Origin: an uncultured Gammaproteobacteria bacterium
Lineage (GTDB): Bacteria > Patescibacteriota > Microgenomatia > UBA8517
Length of the DNA stretch: 64,000 nucleotides
Assembly: GCA_964540475.1 (NCBI GenBank)
Contig: CAZIMC010000001.1
Span: 345,575 to 409,574, forward strand
Direction: 5' to 3'
Part shown: positions 1,147 through 21,061 of the stretch, piece by piece
How the letters are laid out: every line of letters begins with the position of its first letter
Position numbering within the stretch: the stretch's first letter is position 1
Notes under the pieces: generated by a model
Database searches by the model: none
Seen by the model: only the letters and a program-made list of their open reading frames with translations
What the model was told of the DNA's origin: nothing
Translations under genes and position numbers: made by a program

Positions 1147-3864
1147 ATGCTTAATTTATTCTCAAAATTTTTGGACCTCAACCAAAGGGAAATAGACCGC
1201 TATTCCCGGATTGTTAATAAGATAAACGAGCTCGAAATCGAGACTTCCAAACTAAAAGACGGAGATTTCAAGAAAAAAACTGAAGAATTTAAGAATCGTA
1301 TTGAAAAAGGAGAGACTTTAGAAGGAATTTTACCCGAAGCATATGCGGTAGTTCGTGAAGCTAGCAGTAGGGCTCTCGGGATGAGGCATTATGATGTTCA
1401 GTTGATGGCGGCCATAACTCTTTTTGAAGGTCGGGTAGCAGAGCAAAAGACAGGGGAAGGAAAAACACTTTCGGCTGTTCCTGCGCTATATTTAAGAACA
1501 CTTACCGGAAAAGGAGTACACCTTGTTACAGTTAATGATTATTTGGCACGAAGAGATGCCGGCTGGAATGCTCCAATTTTTGATTTATTAGGACTATCTG
1601 TGGGCGTAATTATCCAGGAAGGAAAGAGCTTTATCTATGATTCCAGGTTTACTGATACCAGTCATGGAGACGAGAGACTATCGCACCTTAAACCTGCTAG
1701 CCGTAAAGAAACATATGCAAGTGACATAGTTTATGGGACAAACAACGAATTCGGTTTTGACTACTTGCGCGATAACATGGTCCAAACGTTGGACGAGATG
1801 GTCCAGCGCGGGCATTATTTTGCGATAGTTGACGAGGTTGATTCTGTTTTAATAGATGAAGCAAGAACCCCTTTAATTATTTCAGCTCCGGACACTGAAC
1901 CGACAGACAAATATTATAAATTTGCAGAGCTTATCCAAAAACTTAATTCCGATACTGATTTTAAGATTGACGAGAAAGCAAAGAGTGCAACCTTAACGGA
2001 GCGGGGAATTGAAAGAGTCGAAAAGCTATTGGGAATTCAAAACCTTTATGAAAAAGATTTTGACACAATTCACCATATCGAGAATGCATTAAGAGCAAAG
2101 ACGCTGTATTTACGGGACCGCGAATATGTGGTCAAAGATAACACCATAACTATTGTAGATGAATTTACAGGGAGACTAATGGTTGGTAGACGCTGGAGCG
2201 ACGGATTGCATCAGGCGGTCGAAGCGAAAGAAGGTGTACCCATTCAACAAGAAAGCAAAACTCTCGCGACAATTTCTTTCCAAAACTACTTTAGAATGTA
2301 TGAGCATCTTTCAGGGATGACCGGTACAGCTGCCACAGAGGCAGAAGAGTTTAGAAAAATATATAACCTTGAGGTGATTGCAATTCCAACACATAGGGAA
2401 ATGGTGAGACGCGACATGTCGGATGTTATTTACAAAAGCATATCCGCCAAGTACACAGCAATTGCTGATGAGATCGAAAAAATGCATGAAAAGGGTCAAC
2501 CAGTGCTTGTGGGCACTACCTCAATTGATAAAAACGAAATAATTTCGGACTACTTGAAGAGACGCAAAATTCCCCATAACGTTTTGAATGCAAAAAACCA
2601 CGAGCGGGAAGCCGCCATAATCTCCGATGCAGGCAAACCGGGTGGAGTAACGGTTGCAACAAACATGGCAGGGAGGGGTGTTGACATTGTATTGGGCGGG
2701 GCAGTACCTGAAAAACCAGATGGAGTAACAAATGAAAAGTTTAAGAAGAGTAAGGAATATAAAGCCTGGCAGGATCTTCACGAAAGAGTATTGAAAGCAG
2801 GAGGCCTTCATGTTCTTGGAACCGAGAGACATGAAAGCAGAAGAATTGACAACCAGCTTAGAGGGCGGTCAGGTAGACAGGGGGACCCGGGATCGTCCCG
2901 CTTTTATCTCTCATTGGAAGATGACTTAATGAGAATCTTCGGTGGTGAGCAGATAAAAGGAATTATGGATAGGCTAAAACTTCCGGAAGATCAGCCGATT
3001 GAGAATTCTTTGGTAAACCGTGCAATTGAGCAGGCTCAAGTGAAAGTTGAAGGTTTCCATTTTGATATAAGGAAAAGATTGGTTGAATTTGATGATGTTG
3101 CTAACCAGCAAAGAGATATTATTTACAAATTGAGAAGACGTGTACTTGAATCCAGTAATTTAAAAGAAGAGGTCTTAGATAAACTAAGAGAGAGGATTGA
3201 GGGTATGCTTCAATCATTTGAAGCACCAGATTCGGAGCAGGTCATGGTAAGCTTTCTTGAGATAGTACCTTTTGATGATTCTTCTTCGAAAAGAATTAGG
3301 AAAGAACTTGAAGCTAGAAATAATATAGAAGAAATTAAAGAATTTCTTTTCAAAGTTCTGGAGGATGTGCATAAAAGTAGGGAAGAACAAGTGGGTGCTG
3401 AAGTAATGAGACAGATGGAGCGGTTTGCATACCTTGGTGCGATTGACAGACAATGGATGGATCATATTGACCAGATCAATGATTTAAGGGAATCTGTTGA
3501 ACTCAGGCGGGTAGGACAAAAAGATCCTCTTGTTGAATTTAAAAATGAAGCCTACACAATGTTTGAGAATCTAATAGCAAGGATTAATGAGGAGTTGGCG
3601 CGAAGGCTCTTTAGAATTGGTGTTTCGGCTCCTCCTTCTGAGATCCCGCTTGATAAGGCAAGGGAAAATGTTGATACAACCGACATGACAGGCCTTGCAG
3701 GGGGTGCGGATCAGGCATTGCGGACTGGGCAGCCAGCCTTTGCCAGTCCGGGTAACCAAGCAACTAACATGCTAGCCAACCATGGCAAGCTTGGCCGCAA
3801 CGACCCCTGCTGGTGTGGATCAGGAAAAAAGTGGAAGAAATGTCATTATCCAACTCTAGGATAA
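1147..3864 (+). CDS. secA: Preprotein translocase ATPase SecA
   Basis: This is a 905-aa ORF with SecA motor motifs ('GEGKTL', 'VTVNDYLARRD', 'DEVDSVLIDEARTPLIIS', 'TGTA', 'TNMAGRGVDI', 'GRSGRQGDPGSSRFYLSLEDDL'). It ends with the SecA zinc-binding tail 'CWCGSGKKWKKCH'. Confidence 0.95.
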   Translation: MLNLFSKFLDLNQREIDRYSRIVNKINELEIETSKLKDGDFKKKTEEFKNRIEKGETLEGILPEAYAVVREASSRALGMRHYDVQLMAAITLFEGRVAEQKTGEGKTLSAVPALYLRTLTGKGVHLVTVNDYLARRDAGWNAPIFDLLGLSVGVIIQEGKSFIYDSRFTDTSHGDERLSHLKPASRKETYASDIVYGTNNEFGFDYLRDNMVQTLDEMVQRGHYFAIVDEVDSVLIDEARTPLIISAPDTEPTDKYYKFAELIQKLNSDTDFKIDEKAKSATLTERGIERVEKLLGIQNLYEKDFDTIHHIENALRAKTLYLRDREYVVKDNTITIVDEFTGRLMVGRRWSDGLHQAVEAKEGVPIQQESKTLATISFQNYFRMYEHLSGMTGTAATEAEEFRKIYNLEVIAIPTHREMVRRDMSDVIYKSISAKYTAIADEIEKMHEKGQPVLVGTTSIDKNEIISDYLKRRKIPHNVLNAKNHEREAAIISDAGKPGGVTVATNMAGRGVDIVLGGAVPEKPDGVTNEKFKKSKEYKAWQDLHERVLKAGGLHVLGTERHESRRIDNQLRGRSGRQGDPGSSRFYLSLEDDLMRIFGGEQIKGIMDRLKLPEDQPIENSLVNRAIEQAQVKVEGFHFDIRKRLVEFDDVANQQRDIIYKLRRRVLESSNLKEEVLDKLRERIEGMLQSFEAPDSEQVMVSFLEIVPFDDSSSKRIRKELEARNNIEEIKEFLFKVLEDVHKSREEQVGAEVMRQMERFAYLGAIDRQWMDHIDQINDLRESVELRRVGQKDPLVEFKNEAYTMFENLIARINEELARRLFRIGVSAPPSEIPLDKARENVDTTDMTGLAGGADQALRTGQPAFASPGNQATNMLANHGKLGRNDPCWCGSGKKWKKCHYPTLG

Positions 3865-4012
3865 TGACCCTGAGCATGTCGCATGGGCTACTATCCTCAA
3901 ATGTCCCAGTAGCGACAGATTGGAATGTATCAAACAGCCAATTAGTTGGTACGTAGCGATTTAAGTCTGTTTTGGGGGTTTTCAAAACCCTTCTTACAGG
4001 TTAGAATGGCTT

Positions 4013-4549
4013 TTGCCAATGGAAGAAAAACCAATAAACAACAAGAGCTTGGCAATATTATTAGGGGTATTACTTTTAATTGCCATTGGAGTGGGGCTTA
4101 TTTTCAGAGGGGATAATAATTTGGGAAGTCTAGTTGCTCAAAACCAGCAGGGGATTTCACTTAGTGAACTAGACAGTCTTGCACAATTTGAGCAAACAGG
4201 AGAGAATGTACAGATGCAAACTACGAGTGAGTTAGAAAAAGAGGACTTGGTAGTTGGAACAGGCGACGAAGCACAGGCAGGCAAGTCTGTTACTGTCCAT
4301 TATGTGGGAACTCTTCTTAATGGAACCAAGTTTGACAGCTCACGTGACCGAGGTGAGCCGTTTACCTTTAATTTGGGAGCTGGAGAAGTTATAGAAGGAT
4401 GGGACCTTGGAGTTTCCGGAATGAAAGTTGGGGGAAAGAGAGTTTTAACAATACCATCTGAACTGGCATATGGCCCTGCCGGAGCTCCTCCCGTTATTGG
4501 ACCAAATGAAACTTTAGTTTTTGAAGTTGAACTTCTTGAAGTTAATTAA
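4013..4549 (+). CDS. FKBP-type peptidyl-prolyl cis-trans isomerase with N-terminal signal/anchor
   Basis: This is a 178-aa ORF. It has an N-terminal hydrophobic segment and an FKBP domain block '[63 protein letters not shown]'. Confidence 0.8.
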
Positions 4550-10227: not shown

Positions 10228-11381
10228 GAATCAAAATTATTCTGGCAGTTACTGCCACCCTTATTTTACTGGGTTTGCAGTTTTTTCAAGGTGCAAATAA
10301 TGTTTCAATTCAAGCAAAGACGCTTGAGGAAATTCAAAAAGAAATTGAAGAGTATCAAAATGAACTAGCCAGGCTTTCTGTTCAATCTAAGACTTTAGCT
10401 AATCAAGTGGCGCAATTTGATGCACAAATTAGATTAACTACATTGAAGATTTCCCAAACTGAGGAAAAGATTCTTCTCTTGGGTGGCAGGATTGACCAGC
10501 TTGAAAATTCACTGGACTCACTTACAAATGCCTTTTCTACAAGGGCGGTTGAAACCTATAAGATGAACAGACTTGGAGATGGTCTGTTTTTGCTTTTAGG
10601 GGCGGATGGCATAAACGAAGTGGTTTCCAGATATCACTACCTTCAAAGAATCCAGCAATCCGATCAGGATCTTTTGCAGCGACTTCAGAGGGCACAGACA
10701 ATTTATGTTGGTGAAAAAGAAGATCAGGAGGTTCTTCAAAAAGAGCTCGAGAAGCAAAAAGCAGAGCTGGATGATCAGAAAGCAGCTAAAGCCTTTCTAT
10801 TGCAAGTTACCCGGAATGATGAAGCTAAATACCAACAACTATTAGCTCAGGCAAGGTCTGAATATGAAGCTATTCAGGCAATTATAGCCGGGAAAGGGCA
10901 GGAGACCGAGGTGGGGCATGTTAGTCAGGGAGCAAGAATCGCCTCCATCATTCAGGGGGCGTCATGTAACTCAAGCGGAGCGCACCTTCACTTTATCGTC
11001 AGCAGCAACGGTATAACTCAAAATCCTTTTGCCCATCTTAAAGATGGCATTACTAACGAGAATTGCACTGGATCTTCCTGTGGCAGCGGCAATGGCGATC
11101 CTTTTAACCCAACAGGCACTTGGGATTGGCCAATTAGCCCAACAATACGCTATTCACAAGGTTATGGCGAAACTTGGGCAGTTAGAAACACATGGGTAGG
11201 AAGAATTTACAGGTTTCATAATGGGATTGATATAAACAGCTCCACATCCCCTGAAGTTCGGGCAGTTAGAAGCGGGACATTATACAGGGGAAGTTATAAT
11301 GTTGGTTGCGCGCTCCGGTATGTGAGGGTGGCGCATGATGACTCAGACCTTGATACCTTCTATTTACATATTAATTATTAG
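10224..11381 (+). CDS. Coiled-coil M23 family metallopeptidase (EnvC/PcsB-like FtsEX partner) with permuted M23 motif order
   Basis: The ORF overlaps the ftsX stop. It has a signal/TM, about 200 aa of heptad-rich coiled coil, and then M23 motifs 'SSGAHLHFIVSSNG' (HxH) and 'RFHNGIDI' (HxxxD), in that order. Confidence 0.7.
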   Translation: MRIKIILAVTATLILLGLQFFQGANNVSIQAKTLEEIQKEIEEYQNELARLSVQSKTLANQVAQFDAQIRLTTLKISQTEEKILLLGGRIDQLENSLDSLTNAFSTRAVETYKMNRLGDGLFLLLGADGINEVVSRYHYLQRIQQSDQDLLQRLQRAQTIYVGEKEDQEVLQKELEKQKAELDDQKAAKAFLLQVTRNDEAKYQQLLAQARSEYEAIQAIIAGKGQETEVGHVSQGARIASIIQGASCNSSGAHLHFIVSSNGITQNPFAHLKDGITNENCTGSSCGSGNGDPFNPTGTWDWPISPTIRYSQGYGETWAVRNTWVGRIYRFHNGIDINSSTSPEVRAVRSGTLYRGSYNVGCALRYVRVAHDDSDLDTFYLHINY

Positions 11382-12721: not shown

Positions 12722-12750
12722 TTGACAAGGGTTAATGGCTTATATAACAT
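12722..12750 (+). promoter_or_regulatory. Sigma70-like promoter candidate (TTGACA-N17-TAACAT)
   Basis: TTGACA lies at 12722-12727 and TAACAT at 12745-12750 with a 17-nt spacer. The first ATG of the downstream ORF is at 12776. The ORF-track start at 12722 is a TTG that coincides with the -35 box. Confidence 0.3.
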
Positions 12751-12775
12751 TATCCCACACTTGCCCAATGAGAAA

Positions 12776-13492
12776 ATGAAGAATAAAGGGCAAACTATAA
12801 CTATCACACTACCATCATTCCCCATTCGAGAATACATCTCTAAAGTCAAAAATTATATGCTCTATCTTCTAAGTGAATTAAAATCTAAATTTTCCCTTAA
12901 TTTTACAAGAAGAACTTTAAATCCAAAAAACTTTTATGAAAAGAACAAGAACCTTAAAAGATATTTACCCTATATCATAATTGCGATTTTCGTTCTTCTT
13001 ACATTAATGTTGGGGGGTGTCGCGATTAGGAATATTTCAATTGCCTCTTCGAAACCGACAGTGGCTGATGCAAAAGCGAGTAACAATATTGGTAGAGAAT
13101 TTTCATTTCCCTTAGTGAATGCCAGTGGAGAAAAGGTAAGTGAGGTAAGGTTCGTATTTGAAAAAGCAGAGTTAAGAGACGAAATTATTGTTCAAGGCCA
13201 AAAAGCAAACTCAGTTAAAGGGCGAGTGTTTTTTGTACTGAATCTTAAAATTATCAATGAGCATAACCAGGCAGTTGAAATTAACACCAGAGATTATGTT
13301 CGACTTGCTGTATCCGGCAACGAATCAGAGTGGTTGGCTCCCGAGATTCACAATGATCCTGTTGAGGTTCAGCCCATATCAACTAAATACACAAGGTTAG
13401 GATTTACTATTAACGAGACGGATAAAAATTTGACACTTCGTGTAGGAGAAATTAGTGGGGAAAAGGAAGAAATAACAATTTCATTTAAATAA
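12776..13492 (+). CDS. Hypothetical secreted/membrane-anchored protein
   Basis: The ORF has a single TM ('YIIIAIFVLLTLMLGGVAI') after a basic N-terminus, followed by a beta-rich soluble domain. I recognise no family. Confidence 0.4.
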   Translation: MKNKGQTITITLPSFPIREYISKVKNYMLYLLSELKSKFSLNFTRRTLNPKNFYEKNKNLKRYLPYIIIAIFVLLTLMLGGVAIRNISIASSKPTVADAKASNNIGREFSFPLVNASGEKVSEVRFVFEKAELRDEIIVQGQKANSVKGRVFFVLNLKIINEHNQAVEINTRDYVRLAVSGNESEWLAPEIHNDPVEVQPISTKYTRLGFTINETDKNLTLRVGEISGEKEEITISFK

Positions 13493-13495
13493 ATT

Positions 13496-13675
13496 ATGCA
13501 TGACTTTTCTGTTAAGCAAATTTCACCGAAGCTTCTCTTGGAAATAAAAACAGCTCTTCAGAGTGTGGATGCATATGGGAGTGTAGAGCTTTATGTACAG
13601 GATGGTGTGGTTACGCAGGTAACCGTAAGAAATATCAGGAAAACAAACGGTCACAGATTGCAAAAATCAGTGTAA
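13496..13675 (+). CDS. DUF2292 (YezD)-like small protein, 59 aa, not in the ORF track
   Basis: It runs from ATG 13496 to TAA 13673-13675. The translation MHDFSVKQISPKLLLEIKTALQSVDAYGSVELYVQDGVVTQVTVRNIRKTNGHRLQKSV matches the DUF2292 pattern '...YGSVxIxIQDGKVVQIExxEKxR'. Confidence 0.45.
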   Translation: MHDFSVKQISPKLLLEIKTALQSVDAYGSVELYVQDGVVTQVTVRNIRKTNGHRLQKSV

Positions 13676-13687
13676 CTTTTGTAATAC

Positions 13688-13716
13688 TTGACAAGCTCTA
13701 CGTAGATTAGTATATA
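13688..13716 (+). promoter_or_regulatory. Near-consensus sigma70-like promoter (TTGACA-N17-TATATA) of the repeat-protein operon
   Basis: TTGACA lies at 13688-13693 and TATATA at 13711-13716 with a 17-nt spacer. This predicts a TSS near 13723 and a ~150-nt leader before ATG 13871. Confidence 0.4.
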
Positions 13717-13870: not shown

Positions 13871-15172
13871 ATGAATTTATTTCAAAAGAAAGTCGCTTCT
13901 GCAATCGCTTCAGGTGCAATGCTTCTTAATTTAGTGGTACCGGCATTAGCTCAATCCACTACATTAGTCATTACTGGAAACGGTGCAGATTCTGAAAACA
14001 AGACAGACGTCAAGGTTACTACCTCGACGACAGTTACACAAAATAACGATGCAAACATTAGCAACAACGTAAACTCAAGCGCAAACACTGGTAATAATAC
14101 AGCTAGCAGAAATACTGGTGGTGATGTTTATGTTGGTACTGGAGACGCAACATCTGTTGTTTCAGTTGCAAACACTGCAAACAGCAATCAAGCAGACATC
14201 GACGGATGCTGCGGTAGTGATGTTGAGGTGCTCATTGGTCAAAATGGAGCCGACAGTAAAAACGATGCCAAACTGAAGCTCGAAAATACTGTTTGGGTAG
14301 ACCAAAACAATGATGCTAGTTTGCAAAACAACGTCACCTCCAATACAAACACCGGTGGAAATCGTACAAACAGAAATACTGGTGGTGATGTTGCCATCGA
14401 AACAGGAGATGCATTATCTGCGGTAAGCATTGAGAACAGTGCAAACTACAACTCGGCTAGAATTGGCGGAGGCAGTGGTAGCTCACTAAGTATGTGGATT
14501 CTTGAAAATGGTGCAGACACCAAAAACAAGATCGACCTTAAGTTTGAGAACTTGCTGGGAGTTAGACAATATAACGACGCAAATGTTTCAAACAAGGTTA
14601 ATGCTGACGCAGAAACAGGCGACAACAAAGCAAACAAGAATACCGGTGGCGAAGTATTTATCGGCACAGGTGATGCAGAAGTTGGAGTCTTAGTTGACAA
14701 TTTAGTCAACTTCAATTGGGCAGACGTAGAGTGCGACTGCTTGATGGATGTACTGGCTAAGATTGCAAAAAATGGCGATGAATCCAAAAATGAGATAAAA
14801 GCCAACCTGTCTGATACCAGATATGTTGCTCAAGAAAACGATTTCTCATGTGGAAAAGGTGGTTACGGATTGCCTTCAATTCTTTCATTACTCTTGGGTA
14901 AGAAGAAATCAGGAGGAGATTGTAACGACATAAACGCCTATGCCGGCACCGGTGATAATACCGCCAAGGCAAATACTGGTGAAGGTGACAGTGACCCTGC
15001 CATCGAAACCGGTAACGCAAGTGTCTTTGTTGAAGTTGAGAACACAGCCAATTCCAACGAAGTTGGAGCGGGTAGTGGCCCATCCTGGGAGTTTCCTCTT
15101 CCTGGAGGCTTTAGTTTCAACTTAAACATTTCCTTTAGCTTGGCACAATTATTGGCCGCTTTGGGACTTTAA
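13871..15172 (+). CDS. Secreted Asn/Thr/Gly-rich tandem-repeat protein (paralog 1), putative surface/fibre protein
   Basis: It has the SD 'gaaaggaggtga' and a signal peptide 'MNLFQKKVASAIASGAMLLNLVVPALA'. It contains at least 5 degenerate ~80-aa repeats of the form 'GNGADS.N...V.Q.NDA...NNV.S.ANTG.N.A.RNTGGDV.I.TGDA..V..V.N.ANSN'. Cys pairs (GCCG, CDC, C...C) lie between repeats, and the C-terminus is hydrophobic. Confidence 0.8.
   Translation: MNLFQKKVASAIASGAMLLNLVVPALAQSTTLVITGNGADSENKTDVKVTTSTTVTQNNDANISNNVNSSANTGNNTASRNTGGDVYVGTGDATSVVSVANTANSNQADIDGCCGSDVEVLIGQNGADSKNDAKLKLENTVWVDQNNDASLQNNVTSNTNTGGNRTNRNTGGDVAIETGDALSAVSIENSANYNSARIGGGSGSSLSMWILENGADTKNKIDLKFENLLGVRQYNDANVSNKVNADAETGDNKANKNTGGEVFIGTGDAEVGVLVDNLVNFNWADVECDCLMDVLAKIAKNGDESKNEIKANLSDTRYVAQENDFSCGKGGYGLPSILSLLLGKKKSGGDCNDINAYAGTGDNTAKANTGEGDSDPAIETGNASVFVEVENTANSNEVGAGSGPSWEFPLPGGFSFNLNISFSLAQLLAALGL
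13960..15060 (+). repeat. Degenerate ~240-nt (~80-aa) tandem coding repeats; similar repeats continue in the paralogs at 15640-17100, 17590-18330 and 19250-19750
   Basis: The protein-level periodicity is the 'NTGGD...TGDA' unit. At the nucleotide level some repeats share identical 21-mers, for example 'agaaatactggtggtgatgtt' at 14108-14128 and 14372-14392. Confidence 0.6.
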
Positions 15173-15274: not shown

Positions 15275-17500
15275 ATGAAACATAATTTATATAAAAGAAT
15301 AATTGCAACATTATTAGCAATAGCCCTTATTGTTAATCAGATTGGAATTGCATATGCTAATGCCCAGACTGCTCCAACTCCGCCACCGCCACCCAGCGCG
15401 CCTACGCCCCCTCCAAGCCCAACATCTACTCCAACCCCTCCGCCACCGCCACCCAGCGTGACGCCTGTTCCCACCCCTACTCCTACGCCAGTTGGCACCC
15501 CAACACCCCCTCCTGCACCTACGTGGTCACCGACACCAACCCCCTCGCCCACACCAACCAACACAGCCACAAAGACACCTAAACCCAGTCCATCCCCTAC
15601 TTCTGAGCCTGTTACCTCAACTCAAACTACAACCGGCGGGGGAAATAGTGATGGCAATGTAGGTGCTACCAATGTCGAAACAGGAGATGCTAACAATATT
15701 GCAAATGTTGGGAGTGTTGCAAACACAAATACAGCAGTTGCAGGAGGAAGTGGTGGGAGTATAAATGTACTTAATGATCAAAATGGGCAGGAATCGGCCA
15801 ATAATTCATCAGCTAAAATAGTTACTGATACTAACCTCGATCAAACAAATAGCGCAAAGGTTATCAATAGCCTAGCACAAAACAGCACAACCGGGGAAAA
15901 TTCAGCCTCCAGGAATGTTGGGGATTCGACCATTACAACAGGTGATGCGAACACTACAGGAACGGTTGTAACTTCTGTTAATACTAATGTGGCTGGCATG
16001 ATGGTTTCCGAATTTAATATATTAGATGACCACGTTGGGGATATCATATTGGATTTTGGTGCCAACTGCGTTTCCGGGTGTTCTGGGGCTAACACTAACA
16101 TAGCAAATACTAATAACGGCTCAGCTTCAACAAATTCAGCAACTTTGGATTCAAATAGTGGCGAAGTTGTGTTTCAAAATAACGATGCTTCTGTAGAAAA
16201 TAATTTAGTACTTGAGTCAAACACTGGCGAAAATAGAACCGACAGAAACACGGCCGGGGATTCATCGATTGAAACCGGAGATGCAAACGTTTCTGCTAAT
16301 GTTATTACCTTTGCTAACAACAATATTATTGGTGATGTTATTTATGCGGCGGTAAACATATTCGGGAACCTGGTTGGGGATATTATTTTTCCGGATGGAA
16401 CGCTAATTCCTTGTTGCTTGGGAACCTCTACCGTAGCTAACACCAATAACGGCTCGGGGTCAAACAACACTTCAAATTTGACGCAAAACAATACTGGCGA
16501 TATCTACCAATTTAATAATGTCGACATTCAGAACAATTTAATATTTGATGCAAACACGGGAGGAAATGATATAAGTCGCAATACCAACGGTAATTCATCT
16601 GTTCAAACTGGAGAGTCTAATGTTTTGGCACAGGTAATAAATATTGCTAACAACAATCTTGTGGGCGGGGATTATTGGCTTGTAATTGTTAATGAAGCAG
16701 GTAAATGGGTTGGTAAAATATTGGGCGCGGACGGCAGCTTTATCGCAGGGTCTCCAATATTCGAATTTCTCGTTGGTACATCCGGGGAAGTGAATGTAGC
16801 CAATGCAGATAATGCTAGCGGTACAGAAAATGTTGCATCAGTAACTCAAAATAACAACTCCTCAGTAACACAACTTAATAATGCGCAAATTGTTAACAAT
16901 GTAAATCTTTCAGCGAACACCGGTGATAATTCTGCTAGTAGAAACACTGGGGGAAACAACTCAATAGTAACAGGAGACGCAACTATCATTGCCAATATAG
17001 TGAATTTTGTTAATAACAACATAGTAGGAGGAGGCAGGCTGTTTGTAACTGTTGTTAATGTATTTGGAAGCTGGGTAGGAGATTTTGTTGGTCCTGGCTT
17101 CAAAAAAGAAGTTAAAGATGCGGCCAGTAACCAAAATGATGTTAACGGTGTGGGGGGTATGAGCGAAGGAGACGATCAGGAAAAAAATGGTGATTCAAAT
17201 ACCAACACAGCTGGTGGATCAAAAGAATATACGCAGACAAATCAGACTGCATCCAACCTAAATAATCCTGTTGCCGATAAATTTTACAGTAAAGTTGCAG
17301 GTTTCAGTATTTTAAATTCTCAGGACGACACATTCGGCGGAGGCGGCTTATTACCAGGATCAGAACAGGCAGGCAAAAGAACGGTAAACATCAACCTTGC
17401 CTGGTTACTTCTAGGAGTAGTCCCGTTAGGTGTAGTTACTACTATTATTCGACGTAGACATATTATTCTTAAGTTGGTAAGTAGCAATAAAAAGGTATGA
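15275..17500 (+). CDS. Secreted Pro-rich-linker + Asn/Thr/Gly-rich repeat protein (paralog 2) with C-terminal hydrophobic segment and basic tail
   Basis: It is 741 aa with a signal peptide. The N-terminal linker is 'TAPTPPPPPSAPTPPPSPTSTPTPPPPPPSVTPVPTPTPTPVGTPTPPPAPTWSPTPTPSPTPT'. The repeats are 'ANTG.N.A.RNTG..S..TGDA' with inserted 'NNNI[IV]G(D/G)...V.N..G.WVG' segments. The C-terminus 'GGLLPGSEQAGKRTVNINLAWLLLGVVPLGVVTTIIRRRH' has a motif, TM and positive tail arranged like a cell-wall sorting signal. Confidence 0.8.
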   Translation: MKHNLYKRIIATLLAIALIVNQIGIAYANAQTAPTPPPPPSAPTPPPSPTSTPTPPPPPPSVTPVPTPTPTPVGTPTPPPAPTWSPTPTPSPTPTNTATKTPKPSPSPTSEPVTSTQTTTGGGNSDGNVGATNVETGDANNIANVGSVANTNTAVAGGSGGSINVLNDQNGQESANNSSAKIVTDTNLDQTNSAKVINSLAQNSTTGENSASRNVGDSTITTGDANTTGTVVTSVNTNVAGMMVSEFNILDDHVGDIILDFGANCVSGCSGANTNIANTNNGSASTNSATLDSNSGEVVFQNNDASVENNLVLESNTGENRTDRNTAGDSSIETGDANVSANVITFANNNIIGDVIYAAVNIFGNLVGDIIFPDGTLIPCCLGTSTVANTNNGSGSNNTSNLTQNNTGDIYQFNNVDIQNNLIFDANTGGNDISRNTNGNSSVQTGESNVLAQVINIANNNLVGGDYWLVIVNEAGKWVGKILGADGSFIAGSPIFEFLVGTSGEVNVANADNASGTENVASVTQNNNSSVTQLNNAQIVNNVNLSANTGDNSASRNTGGNNSIVTGDATIIANIVNFVNNNIVGGGRLFVTVVNVFGSWVGDFVGPGFKKEVKDAASNQNDVNGVGGMSEGDDQEKNGDSNTNTAGGSKEYTQTNQTASNLNNPVADKFYSKVAGFSILNSQDDTFGGGGLLPGSEQAGKRTVNINLAWLLLGVVPLGVVTTIIRRRHIILKLVSSNKKV

Positions 17501-18627
17501 TGAAAAAAATCAAACAAATTTTTATGCTGCTGACCATTTCCTCGTCTCTTTTTCATTCTTCTGCATTGTGGGTAGCTGCACAAGAGTTGGTAATTTCCGG
17601 CAATGGTGCGGGTGCGGGCAGCGAGGTCGCTATTCAATCTAATTCAACTACTACTATTTCGCAGAGCAATTCTGGCGAAGTTGTCAATACGGTGGACACC
17701 CAGGCCAATACCGGGGGTAACGAAACTAGTGGTAACAGTGGAGACGTTGCAATACAAACAGGCGATATTGAAAGTTTCACTAAGATTCAGACTAGTTTGA
17801 ACCACTCATCCGTAGTTAATGAGTGCTGTAATGGACCAGAGATAAAAATTGAGGTTAACGAAAACGGTTCAGATTCAACAAATAACGTTTCTGTTACATC
17901 AAACAATCAAACAACCATTACAGTAAATCAAAATGCTACAGTGGGCAATAACGTTTCAGGCACGGCTAATACTGGACATAATACAGCCAATAATAATGGT
18001 GGAAATATTTATATTGGTACAGGTGATATAAAAGCTAAGTCGGTAGTTAAAACTGGTCCAGTAAACTATGTACAAATTCAAGGAGGGTTAAATGGGAGTG
18101 GTCTCAATATTGATGTATCTAATAATGGGGACTCTTCCAACAACCTGGTTACTCTCTTGTTAAATGACCTGGCTAATATAAATGTAAACCATAGTGCTAA
18201 CATCTATAACAAGCTAGATTGGGATCTAAATACTGGTAATAATGTCGCCAATGGAAACAATTGGGATGTAATGATTAAAACCGGCGACATTTTATTAGAT
18301 TTGTTGATCGAGAACGGACCGGTCAATGTTGGTGGAATAACCTGGGGTTGCTGTGATGGAGGCACACCCGATGGACCAGATGATCCCAGTGATCCCGACA
18401 ACGAAGGAAACCCGCCCAAAGGAAGTGGTGGGGGATCTCAAAATGGAGCTTCAATAAGTGAAATATTGGGAATTGGTCAAGGTCCGGCAGTACTTGGTTT
18501 GTCGGCAACGGGAGGTCTGTTTGACGCACCCGTTTACTTCTGGTTGGGTATGTTTCTTATTACCTACGGATTTAAACTACTAGGTGAGAACTTGCCCCGT
18601 ATCCGCTTCGTAAAAAATGGCAATTGA
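17497..18627 (+). CDS. Secreted Asn/Thr/Gly-rich repeat protein (paralog 3), C-terminal TM
   Basis: An ATGA start/stop overlap joins it to the upstream paralog. Its signal peptide is 'MMKKIKQIFMLLTISSSLFHSSALWVAA'. The repeats are 'SGNGAGAGSEV...ANTGGNETSGNSGDVAIQTGD' with CC pairs 'NECCNGPE' and 'WGCCDGG'. The C-terminus is '...LSATGGLFDAPVYFWLGMFLITYGFKLLGENLPRIRF'. Confidence 0.8.
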   Translation: MMKKIKQIFMLLTISSSLFHSSALWVAAQELVISGNGAGAGSEVAIQSNSTTTISQSNSGEVVNTVDTQANTGGNETSGNSGDVAIQTGDIESFTKIQTSLNHSSVVNECCNGPEIKIEVNENGSDSTNNVSVTSNNQTTITVNQNATVGNNVSGTANTGHNTANNNGGNIYIGTGDIKAKSVVKTGPVNYVQIQGGLNGSGLNIDVSNNGDSSNNLVTLLLNDLANINVNHSANIYNKLDWDLNTGNNVANGNNWDVMIKTGDILLDLLIENGPVNVGGITWGCCDGGTPDGPDDPSDPDNEGNPPKGSGGGSQNGASISEILGIGQGPAVLGLSATGGLFDAPVYFWLGMFLITYGFKLLGENLPRIRFVKNGN

Positions 18628-19168
18628 AAAGACCACTAGGGAGAAACTTGGTTTGGCTATATCGCTAATTGTATTGGGCGTACTATTTATATGGAATAGG
18701 ACACCTTCCACTGTCGCCTCTGACACTTTCAAGAATGAACCAGTTAAAGTTCAGGGCTTTGACACACAGAATGCAGAGGGAGACTTGCCTACGAGGGTCG
18801 TTATTCCTGGCCTGGGCATAGATTTACCAGTCGAAAGAGCAAAAATTATAGACGGATATTGGGAAGTATTTGAAGATACGGCAGCTTGGGGAGAGGATTC
18901 TGGGTTACCGGGTAAGCCGGGAAATCAGGTGGTTTTTGCTCACGCCAGAGAGGGTTTATTTTTACCCCTTAAAGACGTCTCTGAGGGGGAAGTTATTTAT
19001 ATTTTGACAAATAGTGATTGGTATTCATATAAGGTGGCTGAAATAAAAGAAGTACTCCCAAATCAGACAGAGGTAATTGCACCCACCCTTGATGAAACGC
19101 TTACACTTTATACTTGTTCTGGGTTTAACGACAGTAAGAGACTTATTGTCATAGCTAAGAGAGTCTAA
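18617..19168 (+). CDS. Sortase (transpeptidase) family protein
   Basis: This 183-aa ORF overlaps the 3' end of paralog 3 by 11 nt. It has an N-terminal TM 'LGLAISLIVLGVLFIW', a conserved His in 'VVFAHAREG', the catalytic 'LTLYTCSG' (TLxTC) motif and a downstream Arg ('SKRLIVIAKR'). Confidence 0.8.
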   Translation: MAIEKTTREKLGLAISLIVLGVLFIWNRTPSTVASDTFKNEPVKVQGFDTQNAEGDLPTRVVIPGLGIDLPVERAKIIDGYWEVFEDTAAWGEDSGLPGKPGNQVVFAHAREGLFLPLKDVSEGEVIYILTNSDWYSYKVAEIKEVLPNQTEVIAPTLDETLTLYTCSGFNDSKRLIVIAKRV

Positions 19169-19223: not shown

Positions 19224-19820
19224 TTAGTTGAGAACGTTTTCTCCACCAACGACTTCCACACCGACATTTGTTTCAGACTCGTCGGTTGTTAGATCTACAG
19301 TTCCGCCAACATTGTTGTTGGCTTTGTTTTTACCAGTTAAGCTTTTGAATAAAGCGGATAAGCCGACACTTACTTTAGATTTTTGCTTGATGTCTAGTTT
19401 GGTTTTACTTTTGACATCAATTTTATTAGTAGTGCTATTGCCGTTTCCGACAATACTTAAAGCGTTATTTTCCTGGTCCTCGCAGCAGCAGTCAGGAGTG
19501 GTAGCTGTATTCGACCCTCCCGAGACCAACACTCCGATCGAGGTTGCAGCAGCGCCAGTTCCGATGCTTACGCCACTTCCAACATTGGAATTTGCGGTAT
19601 TGCCGCCAGTGTTTGATACAGCCGTTATTCCCACACCCACGCTTGCGTTTGAGTTTTGGGTTAGCTTTGTAGTACACTTGGTGTTTACCAATATTTTATT
19701 ATTGGAATTATTTCCATTCTCACCGATTGTCAAATCGTCAGCAGAAACGGATGTAACCAAAAGTGATAAGGTTAGGAGTGCAGTGCCTGTTCCGGCAAAC
19801 ACTTTTGCTAGTTTATTCAT
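19224..19820 (-). CDS. Secreted Asn/Thr/Gly-rich repeat protein (paralog 4, short)
   Basis: This 198-aa ORF has the signal peptide 'MNKLAKVFAGTGTALLTLSLLVTSVSA', repeats 'SNTGGNTANSNVGSGVSIGTG' and a Cys cluster 'PDCCCEDQ'. Its SD 'aaaggaggtga' and upstream 15-mer are the same as in the + strand operon. A fully overlapping + strand ORF (19228-19824) is judged a shadow ORF. Confidence 0.75.
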   Translation of the reverse strand: MNKLAKVFAGTGTALLTLSLLVTSVSADDLTIGENGNNSNNKILVNTKCTTKLTQNSNASVGVGITAVSNTGGNTANSNVGSGVSIGTGAAATSIGVLVSGGSNTATTPDCCCEDQENNALSIVGNGNSTTNKIDVKSKTKLDIKQKSKVSVGLSALFKSLTGKNKANNNVGGTVDLTTDESETNVGVEVVGGENVLN

Positions 19821-20101: not shown

Positions 20102-21061
20102 ATGCTACATAATCTGTCCCATCTTTTTATTCCCAGAGAGAGCAATAACTATAAAGCCAAGTTGCTACACCACAGTGGTATTTTAGTGCTAATTTCCCTT
20201 TTAATTACGTTTCAAGGTTTTGTAAACTTGTTACCTAAAATTAGCCCCAGCGTTTTAGGTTATGCTGCAAATATTTCACCTGATGATGTAGTAAGGTTAA
20301 CCAACGAAAAGCGTATACAAGCAGGACTTTCCCCATTATCGCATAATTCTGTATTATCAAGTGCAGCGCAAGCAAAAGCGGTGCATATGATTGAAAATGA
20401 TTATTGGGCACACGTGGCCCCAGATGGCACTCAGCCATGGAAATTCTTTACTGACTTTAGTTATAAATATAAATACGCCGGAGAGAATTTGGCTCGTGAT
20501 TTTTCAAATCCTAATTCTGCGGTTGAGGCTTGGATGAATTCACCAACCCACAGAGACAACATGCTATCCTCCAAATATCGAGAAATAGGGATCGGCGTTG
20601 TGGAAGGTGATCTTAACGGAGTTGATACGACCATTATTGTTCAGTTTTTTGGAACTAATTACGCAGATTCGCTTCCACCTGCACCTGTTGCCCAAGTTCA
20701 GAATGTTGCCAATATTGCTTCGCCCGCCCCCACTTTGCAGCCAACATCAACACCCACCTTAACACCTACTCCCACCCCCGCTCCCATCTCTAGTTCAACA
20801 CCTTTCGTAGAAGTTATCACAACCCCTGTGCCACAAACCGCTGTATTGGAAGATCAGCGGGTGTTAATTTCTCCATTTGTAACTTCGAAAGGCGTATCCT
20901 TAAGTATAGTGGGTATACTATTGCTAGTTTTAGTTGTTGATGGAGTTGTGGTGTCAAGGCGGCGAATTGCAAGAATTGGCGGACGAACATTTGCTCACCT
21001 GGCTTTCCTGGGTATGATCCTAACAATTGCTGTAATACTTAAAGCAGGGAGGGTCATATGA
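20102..21061 (+). CDS. CAP/SCP/PR-1 superfamily domain protein with Pro/Thr linker and C-terminal TM
   Basis: The CAP-domain blocks are 'AAQAKAVHMIENDYWAHVAPDG', 'YAGENLARDFSNPNSAVEAWMNSPTHRDNMLSSKYREIGIGVV'. They are followed by the linker 'PTSTPTLTPTPTPAPISSSTP' and a TM 'LSIVGILLLVLVVDGVVV'. Confidence 0.7.
   Translation: MLHNLSHLFIPRESNNYKAKLLHHSGILVLISLLITFQGFVNLLPKISPSVLGYAANISPDDVVRLTNEKRIQAGLSPLSHNSVLSSAAQAKAVHMIENDYWAHVAPDGTQPWKFFTDFSYKYKYAGENLARDFSNPNSAVEAWMNSPTHRDNMLSSKYREIGIGVVEGDLNGVDTTIIVQFFGTNYADSLPPAPVAQVQNVANIASPAPTLQPTSTPTLTPTPTPAPISSSTPFVEVITTPVPQTAVLEDQRVLISPFVTSKGVSLSIVGILLLVLVVDGVVVSRRRIARIGGRTFAHLAFLGMILTIAVILKAGRVI

Follow-up and report, generated by a model that had tools for sequence, protein, structure and literature searches.

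A candidate serine-containing sorting signal on one of four repeat paralogs beside a sortase gene in a Microgenomates genome

Which of the proteins encoded beside a sortase gene does that sortase attach to the cell surface, and by what signal? The question is raised by a 64,000-nucleotide stretch of contig CAZIMC010000001.1 (positions 345,575 to 409,574 of the forward strand; hereafter the window), which comes from an uncultured bacterium placed by its GTDB lineage in the Patescibacteriota and Microgenomatia, and which holds a cassette of repeat-protein paralogs together with a sortase gene. A first-pass annotation of this DNA had flagged the end of paralog 2, where the string LPGSE is followed by a hydrophobic helix and a poly-Arg tail, along with LPGG near the end of paralog 1 and LSATG near the end of paralog 3, and had suggested that a dedicated sortase recognizes an unusual motif such as LPG[GS] or L[SA]xTG. 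The C-terminal peptides that it quoted are correct as translations of all three paralogs, apart from the last 7 residues of paralog 2, which its quotation omitted. The best-supported explanation is that a Ser-containing variant of the LPXTG/LAXTG signal would link paralog 3 to the cell wall via the adjacent sortase. For the cassette as a whole, we put at roughly 0.72 the probability that paralog 3 is sortase-linked, that paralog 2 is anchored in the membrane, and that paralogs 1 and 4 are unanchored. For the flagged region itself the outcome is negative, as LPGSE appears to be no signal and the real signal is predicted to lie on the neighboring paralog 3. The genes of the cassette are the following.

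13871 to 15172, plus strand: paralog 1, 433 residues, with a signal peptide, Asn/Gly/Thr-rich beta repeats and a C-terminal amphipathic tail (translation).
15275 to 17500, plus strand: paralog 2, 741 residues, with a signal peptide, a Pro-rich linker (residues 31-112), a large beta-repeat body, a disordered linker and a C-terminal membrane helix (translation, AlphaFold2 model).
17497 to 18627, plus strand: paralog 3, 376 residues, with a signal peptide, three beta repeats that all end with a Cys-Cys pair, a Pro/Gly/Ser linker and a putative sorting signal (translation, AlphaFold2 model).
18617 to 19168, plus strand: sortase, 183 residues, with an N-terminal membrane helix and the catalytic residues His109 (FAHAR), Cys167 (TLYTCS) and Arg175 (SKRL) (Pfam PF04203, E = 2.6e-22).
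19224 to 19820, minus strand: fourth small paralog, 198 residues, with a signal peptide and two repeats like those of paralogs 1-3, without a C-terminal anchor (translation).

Because the stop of paralog 2 overlaps the start of paralog 3 at 17497-17500 (ATGA) and the end of paralog 3 shares 11 bases with the start of the sortase gene (18617-18627), paralogs 1-3 and the sortase gene are probably one operon. None of the four repeat paralogs matches a Pfam or NCBIfam family, even at E-values up to 10, and the AlphaFold2 models of the repeat proteins have no significant fold neighbor in the Protein Data Bank (PDB), pilins included.

The AlphaFold2 model of paralog 3 has a mean predicted local distance difference test score (pLDDT) of 70.5 and consists of three beta-rich repeats, a disordered stretch (residues 304-339) and a helix (residues 345-365). 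LSATG closes the disordered stretch, directly before the helix. As modeled, the C-terminus of paralog 3 has the layout of a cell-wall sorting signal, with a motif, a helix and a positively charged tail.

18349 to 18489, plus strand: low-complexity linker, residues 285-331 (pLDDT below 50).
18490 to 18516, plus strand: putative sorting motif VLGLSATGG, with LSATG at 18499-18513 (residues 335-339) and predicted cleavage after Thr338 (ortholog alignment).
18532 to 18573, plus strand: hydrophobic segment VYFWLGMFLITYGF (helix in the model with pLDDT up to 93; hydrophobicity scan).
18574 to 18624, plus strand: tail KLLGENLPRIRFVKNGN, with K360, R368, R370 and K373 (translation).

Linkers of similar composition, rich in Pro, Gly, Ser and Asp, are found in all paralog 3 orthologs. 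Paralog 3 is also the only open reading frame (ORF) in the 64-kb window with a sortase-like tail.

The tails of 133 paralog 3 homologs fall into two types. Close relatives carry [IV][LI]-G-L-S-x-T-[S/G], for example VLGLSNTSA, VIGLSDTSS and ILGLSATGG, and in more distant relatives a plain LP[AVIS]TG comes before a helix and YLRLRSGRSP. When 106 paralog 3 sequences are aligned with MAFFT, the LSATG and LPxTG types share the same columns: position 335 is Leu in 104 sequences, position 336 is Pro in 63 and Ser in 39, position 338 is Thr in 104, and position 339 is Gly in 72 and Ser in 27. Alignment of the ortholog C-termini, which the first-pass annotation had proposed, thus yields a conserved pentapeptide in paralog 3 and none at LPGSE or LPGG. 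The LPXTG-anchor model TIGR01167 gives 16.0 bits against a cut-off of 15.9 for the LPxTG-type ortholog tail from locus L018, and it leaves the window's paralog 3 tail unmatched at E-values up to 10. Therefore, routine annotation would overlook such substrates.

To follow the motif together with its enzyme, we fetched 85 related loci, which with the window make 86, and classified their genes by phmmer. The four-gene cassette (paralogs 1-3 and the sortase) is complete in 66 of these loci, the window counted, and most of the incomplete cassettes either run into a contig edge or have no recognizable paralog 3 or sortase. Two sortase clades that are approximately 25% identical to one another fill the same slot of the cassette. 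We named them by sequence signatures, apart from the formal sortase classes: the window-type clade (FAHAREGL...TLTL[YF]TCSGFxDSK) occupies 27 loci, and the LQTC-type clade (LxLQTC[TVW]P[IVL]GT) occupies 42. After removal of duplicates, an LPxTG paralog 3 stands beside 42 of 42 LQTC-type sortases, and G-[LI]-[SA]-x-[TA]-[SGAN] stands beside 25 of 26 window-type sortases; the sole mismatch, L011, looks frameshifted. Fisher's exact test returns p = 6e-19 for this association, with shared ancestry ignored. A rough neighbor-joining tree of paralog 2 shows about 10 changes of sortase type, which could mean that paralog 3 and the sortase travel as a module; a repeat-protein tree is too unreliable to carry much weight here. 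These results agree with the idea that LSATG stands in for LPXTG, since it occupies the LPxTG columns and varies with the sortase clade. They also preserve, for paralog 3 only, the idea of a dedicated sortase that reads an unusual motif, while the LPG[GS] consensus is left without support.

Among 25 window-type loci, the motif begins with Gly (100%) and Leu (96%), which are followed by Ser (76%) or Ala (24%), a variable residue, Thr (80%) or Ala (20%), and Ser (76%), Ala (12%) or Gly (8%). It is preceded by G(P/G)x[IV][LI] and followed by [GS]-E. The window's own Gly after Thr is a minority form in its clade; peptide GPAVLGLSATGGLF represents the window motif and GPGIIGLSDTSSEA the consensus of the window-type clade. 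The L[SA]xTG consensus suggested earlier is therefore close to the [IV][LI]-G-L-[S/A]-x-[T/A]-[S/A/G] found here, but its final Gly is rare.

Paralog 3 of some Woesebacteria-like lineages stops directly behind the motif (...GPAILGLSATSS[KE] and the stop codon), without a membrane helix or a charged tail. Such cases are found in L019 (9226-10257), in the L014 ORF ending at 10346, and in P0170 and P0014. A gene for a sortase of 164 residues begins within 20 bases of these helix-less genes or overlaps them. In L051 / P0191, paralog 3 ends with ...ILGLAYTNDIIPSQVVCDEPKSYYQRFS and is likewise without the helix. Because the motif persists at the extreme C-terminus where the helix has disappeared, its conservation is not explained by a membrane segment alone.

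A third sortase clade (YGHNWPxL...LYTC[ST]GFLDS) is present in six loci (L019, L037, L041, L064, L066 and L083), approximately 2 kb upstream of paralog 1. These sortases are directly preceded by a protein of 174-293 residues that ends with a signal, a helix and an Arg/Lys tail, the signal being FAPTGN in L041 and VLGLA[TSF]TGN in the other five loci. In L006, a protein ending with ...LASTGS, a helix and KK stands directly before a singleton sortase. These second sortase-substrate pairs lie at the following positions, and no such second pair is found within the 64-kb window.

L019, 3037 to 4099
L037, 1311 to 2434
L064, 115 to 1280
L066, 2793 to 4207
L041, 2718 to 4101
L083, 3398 to 4367
L006, 11070 to 12390

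Different clades in one genome adjoin, or lie near, substrates with different motifs. In L037, the LQTC-type cassette sortase stands beside an LPATG paralog 3 and the upstream YGHNW-type sortase stands beside VLGLATTGN. In L068, the window-type cassette sortase stands beside VLGLSAAAGE, and an LQTC-type sortase at 3583-4194 has an 803-residue protein ending with ELPATGAN about 0.9 kb upstream, with one gene between them.

A separate observation concerns L003 (9140-17140), which has an LPVTG-type paralog 3 with no sortase gene called or detected beside it. Several genes downstream in this locus give weak matches to Peptidase_M73 (camelysin / TasA-like), and a further short paralog-1-like gene lies at 13102-13701.

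The enzyme in the window is a sortase by sequence, with its catalytic residues intact. It matches PF04203 with 79.3 bits (cut-off 26.6) and TIGR01076 with 46 bits (cut-off 39.35), and its catalytic H109, C167 and R175 are invariant across both cassette clades (alignment A1); among the 27 window-type sortases their conservation is 80% or higher. It falls below the cut-off of every NCBIfam class model (48.5 of 160 bits for class E, 42.4 of 160 for class C, 40.3 of 165 for class D, 29.3 of 166 for class F and 32.8 of 158 for class GN), as do the other two sortase clades. Its close relatives number at least 120, are 52-68% identical to it and are labeled generically as sortase; those with a named source come from Patescibacteria or Woesebacteria. 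Sequence matches in the PDB are weak, at approximately 35-37 bits, and are to Bacillus anthracis SrtA for the window type and to class C enzymes for the LQTC type.

The two non-proline clades have a conserved Trp (W91 in the window) or Tyr approximately 18 residues before the catalytic His, and the LPxTG clade has His or Gln. This pattern recalls class E SrtE1, in which Tyr229 of the beta3/beta4 loop has been proposed to hydrogen-bond the non-proline residue of LAXTG (PMC5148588). Because the comparison is one of clade pattern, and because the LPxTG clade has His, the residue that favored LAETG in evolved S. aureus SrtA (PMC5148588), we do not equate W91 with Tyr229.

One known system that resembles the window pair is that of the class E sortases with the LAXTG signal (for example S. 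coelicolor SrtE1; PMC5148588), in that the second residue of the substrate motif is small and is not proline. Of the NCBIfam class models, that of class E also scores best with the window sortase, far below its cut-off as that score is, and true LAxTG(N) tails are the partners of a sister clade found in related genomes. However, SrtE1 is not among the PDB sequence matches of the window sortase, and the window-type signal differs from LAXTG in having Ser rather than Ala, mostly Ser after Thr, and a conserved [IV][LI]-G prefix. The canonical LPXTG/class A system shares with paralog 3 a motif, a helix and basic residues after a flexible, wall-spanning linker, and shares with its enzyme the His/Cys/Arg residues; moreover, the best PDB sequence match of the window sortase is the class A Bacillus anthracis SrtA (2kw8, 37 bits), and paralog 3 orthologs in other Microgenomates carry the plain LPxTG of the canonical signal. 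Unlike the canonical system, in which one sortase serves many dispersed substrates, the window sortase is encoded beside just one; in addition, Ser stands in the place of Pro, and TIGR01167 misses the tail. Other non-canonical motifs, such as NPQTN of class B, LPNTA / LPxTATN of class D and (S/P)PXTG of Clostridium difficile, are precedents for sortase clades that have evolved with altered pentapeptides. To our knowledge, none of these has L-S-x-T-S or a G-L prefix.

We therefore propose a surface-protein cassette of Microgenomates, a group of the Patescibacteria or candidate phyla radiation (CPR), in which the paralogs would differ in how they are kept at the cell surface. The helix would retain the precursor of paralog 3 in the membrane, and the adjacent sortase, through Cys167, His109 and Arg175, would cleave it after Thr338. 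Transfer from the acyl-enzyme to a peptidoglycan precursor would then attach paralog 3 to the cell wall. Paralog 2 would be held permanently by its own membrane helix, which comprises a KKxVxI-NLAW motif, a helix with a Pro, and an Arg/Lys stop-transfer cluster. Paralog 1 and the fourth paralog would be secreted and would associate non-covalently with the anchored paralogs through their common repeats. The four paralogs probably form one surface structure.

Several observations weigh against this proposal. The paralog 3 helix is moderately hydrophobic (Kyte-Doolittle mean of 1.63 over 15 residues), and its tail is weakly basic, more weakly so than the YLRLRSGRSP of the LPxTG-type orthologs. 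The replacement of Thr by Ala in 20% of the window-type clade, with mostly Ser at the next residue, is unusual compared to characterized sortases. Presence of the motif without a membrane helix in some lineages does not fit the classical scheme of retention followed by cleavage. The co-variation of motif and sortase is phylogenetically structured, and the approximately 10 switches, which are taken from a repeat-protein tree, may be inflated by tree error. Finally, the near-invariance of NLAW in paralog 2, described below, exceeds what a plain anchor would need.

A more ambitious reading, which we hold as tentative and rather doubtful, is that the window-type enzymes are a new, CPR-specific class of sortase with its own [IV][LI]-G-L-S-x-T-S signal, in which Ser takes the place both of Pro and of the Gly that usually follows the cleavage site, and dedicated to anchoring one subunit of a multi-paralog surface assembly. 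On the same reading, the assembly may be of an undescribed Asn/Gly/Thr-rich beta-repeat fold, and the signal may work without a retention helix in some lineages. If this is true, a helix-less signal would imply that the substrate is presented to the enzyme in a different way.

A more skeptical reading takes G-L-S-x-T-[S/G] as a mere juxtamembrane or linker element, with the window-type sortase acting elsewhere or serving as a housekeeping enzyme of other specificity. It draws on the unlikeness of the motif to every characterized signal, with Ser for Pro, Ser after Thr and the Thr-to-Ala replacement just mentioned, on the failure of the LPXTG-anchor model to recognize the window tail, and on the scan for substrates, which covered 64 kb of this genome. 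We consider this reading unlikely, because the motif is column-equivalent to LPxTG in orthologs whose tails pass the LPXTG-anchor model, because motif and sortase clade switch together in 67 of 68 loci, because the adjacency and overlap of the genes are maintained across the group, and because the motif survives at the extreme C-terminus after loss of the helix.

If paralog 3 is the sortase substrate, what is the tail of paralog 2? The flagged interval, 17320-17500, encodes the last 59 residues of this protein, QDDTFGGGGLLPGSEQAGKRTVNINLAWLLLGVVPLGVVTTIIRRRHIILKLVSSNKKV, and its stop codon; the extreme C-terminus reads ...GGGGLLPGSEQAGKRTVNINLAWLLLGVVPLGVVTTIIRRRHIILKLVSSNKKV. It contains the following elements.

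17351 to 17365, plus strand: LPGSE, residues 693-697, in the disordered linker; not conserved (ortholog comparison, pLDDT below 50).
17372 to 17404, plus strand: juxtamembrane motif GKRTVNINLAW, with the family consensus G-K-K-x-[VIL]-x-[IV]-N-L-A-W (194 of 198 orthologs can be anchored on the motif).
17396 to 17449, plus strand: membrane-spanning segment LAWLLLGVVPLGVVTTII, with a Pro 9 residues past the Asn that is conserved in 81% (ortholog tails, model).
17450 to 17461, plus strand: basic stop-transfer cluster RRRH (three post-helix positions are Arg or Lys in about 66-86% of 191 orthologs).

A homology search with paralog 2 recovered 756 relatives, all from Microgenomates-type genomes; the named ones belong to the Gottesman-, Davies-, Woese-, Ames-, Levy- and Chisholmbacteria, which are Microgenomates-group Patescibacteria. 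Among 198 distinct orthologs, LPG[GS] occurs in one, which is the window's own, and LPx[ST][GSAE] occurs in 6; LPxTG is absent from all 198. By comparison, in the 194 orthologs anchored on the juxtamembrane motif, the Asn is conserved in 100%, the Leu in 95%, the Ala in 98% and the Trp in 87%, and alignments A2 and A5 show no variation at N707. In the AlphaFold2 model of paralog 2, built on a 114-sequence alignment (mean pLDDT 65), residues 622-698, LPGSE included, fall below a pLDDT of 50, and a C-terminal helix at residues 709-740 starts at A709, inside NLAW. Of the tripartite signal that had been suggested here, the helix and RRRH are thus present, but LPGSE is not conserved in the orthologs and appears to be a chance string in a variable linker.

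The consensus INLAW...P of paralog 2 is identical beside both cassette sortase clades, and the tail is found on none of the other 3,524 ORFs in the 86 loci. A search of 1.84 billion representative proteins with a profile of the tail (42 positions) gave 63 matches at E-values up to 0.001. Thirty-four of these are shorter than 450 residues, and almost all of them are truncated paralog 2 C-termini, most retaining the VNVFGSWxGDFVxPG block; two (P0362 and P0365) have unrelated N-termini and are apparently chimeric calls. The longer matches have the length of paralog 2, with the match at the extreme C-terminus. Because the tail is the same beside both clades, is carried by no other ORF and is confined to paralog 2 matches, it is best read as a family-specific membrane anchor rather than as a sortase signal or a portable sorting domain.

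Might the tail nevertheless be a new sorting or processing signal for some other enzyme, in the fashion of PEP-CTERM, PGF-CTERM or GlyGly-CTERM? Those motifs stand at the start of a helix, have dedicated processing enzymes and are carried by many unrelated proteins per genome. The three-part layout, the near-invariant residues at the helix start, the Pro at +9 and a helix that begins exactly at the motif in the AlphaFold2 model make the tail more conserved than a usual anchor and would suit such a role. Nonetheless, the tail is confined to one protein family, both among the 63 profile matches and across the 86 loci, and the neighborhood has no conserved candidate for a multi-pass membrane protease or a transpeptidase, which makes the proposal quite improbable. 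As for the neighbors themselves, the single-pass protein of approximately 250 residues, the DUF2292 peptide, the fourth paralog and the CAP/YkwD protein were each considered as the processing enzyme, and none is a candidate.

In a separate observation, at least two sequences, L014 (7206-10346) and P0014 (1088 residues), have paralogs 2 and 3 joined in a single ORF of about 1,050-1,090 residues. These fused ORFs have lost paralog 2's own INLAW anchor.

The C-terminus of paralog 1, whose gene opens the cassette in nearly all 86 loci, is of a different kind. It reads FPLPGGFSFNLNISFSLAQLLAALGL before the stop codon, with WEFPLPGGFSFNLNISFSLAQLLAALGL as the example of the window's tail, and includes two features.

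15098 to 15109, plus strand: LPGG, residues 410-413; not conserved (80 orthologous tails).
15110 to 15169, plus strand: C-terminal tail FSFNLNISFSLAQLLAALGL, with alternating residues and then a short amphipathic end (translation).

Approximately 12 hydrophobic residues stand at the very end, with no membrane-spanning helix and no Arg or Lys. The tails of 80 orthologs are acidic, alternating and then amphipathic, as in FDFNFSFDLSDLLDWLSDHS and WELPEWDFNFNFSFDLSDLLDWLSDHS, and follow the pattern W-E-x-P-x-F-D-F-N-F-S-F-D-L-S-D-L-L-x-x-L-G-L; LPGG occurs in only a few of them. By its architecture, paralog 1 is predicted not to be a sortase substrate, contrary to the earlier proposal that LPGG serves as its signal.

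It is very improbable, and largely refuted by the ortholog comparison, that all three paralogs are substrates of an adjacent sortase reading both LPG[GS] and L[SA]xTG: the strings are present, LPGSE does precede a helix and a poly-Arg tail, and PxPG is found in the corresponding region of a few proteins closely related to paralog 2 (PLPGAETAG in P0002 and VPVPGGVAG in P0008, for example), but even [LIV]PG is found in just 15 of the 198 paralog 2 orthologs, the LPGSE segment varies in length and sequence and is predicted to be disordered, paralog 1 has neither membrane helix nor basic tail, and the tails of paralogs 1 and 2 stay constant across the sortase clades while the paralog 3 motif varies.

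The tails of paralogs 1 and 2 have one pattern in common. The paralog 1 tail FNLNISFSLAQLL (15110-15169) and VNINLAWLLL of paralog 2 (17381-17404) both have x-N-x-N-[LI] followed by a hydrophobic run, and the paralog-1-like P0235 ends with ...INLSLILAWLGVHV. The two tails may be homologous, with that of paralog 2 extended to a full membrane helix.

Gram-positive pilus loci, with a class C sortase and two or three pilin genes, likewise have secreted paralogs in a row and a dedicated sortase. The present cassette differs in that a sorting signal is found on one paralog only, which would make covalent polymerization by the sortase impossible, and in that no pilin domains are detected with Pfam or NCBIfam.

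A sortase has been reported to be nearly universal in Microgenomates (PMC6744442). In the literature searched, we found no paper that names Microgenomates sortase substrates or signals, the CPR and Microgenomates reports stating gene presence only, and no paper that pairs 'LSXTG' with 'sortase' or 'sorting signal'. Motifs assigned clade by clade would permit genome-based prediction of surface proteins in these uncultured, probably host-attached bacteria. Three motif-enzyme pairs (LPxTG, LAxTGN and GLSxTS) in the context of one protein family would be a natural experiment on the evolution of sortase specificity, and the three clades are a possible source of protein-ligation enzymes that do not interfere with one another.

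Further observations concern the repeats and the genes around the cassette. A conserved Cys-Cys pair ends each beta repeat of the paralogs, C110/C111 and C285/C286 of paralog 3 being at least 90% conserved; the cysteines of paralog 2 occur as CxxxC and CC. Such cysteines suggest that disulfides staple the repeats of an extracellular protein together. The fourth paralog (19224-19820, minus strand) has NTGGN...GTG repeats and a Cys-Cys-Cys cluster, and its gene is convergent with the sortase gene. An unannotated opposite-strand gene for about 150-200 residues follows the sortase gene in L001, L004 and L005, its similarity to the fourth paralog being one of size and position alone.

Upstream of the cassette lies one small ORF, preceded by a single-pass membrane protein of approximately 250 residues at 12722-13492.

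13496 to 13675, plus strand: small DUF2292-family ORF, 59 residues (Pfam PF10055, E = 1.6e-7).

A gene for approximately 60 residues with a weak DUF2292 match stands at the equivalent place in L004 and L005. Upstream genes of like size are present in L003, L004 and L005, and the larger of these gives a weak DUF4352 match in L003 only. Downstream of the cassette, at 20102-21061, is a gene for a secreted CAP / YkwD-family protein (PF00188, E = 1e-20), and a CAP-domain gene is found at the matching relative place in L004.

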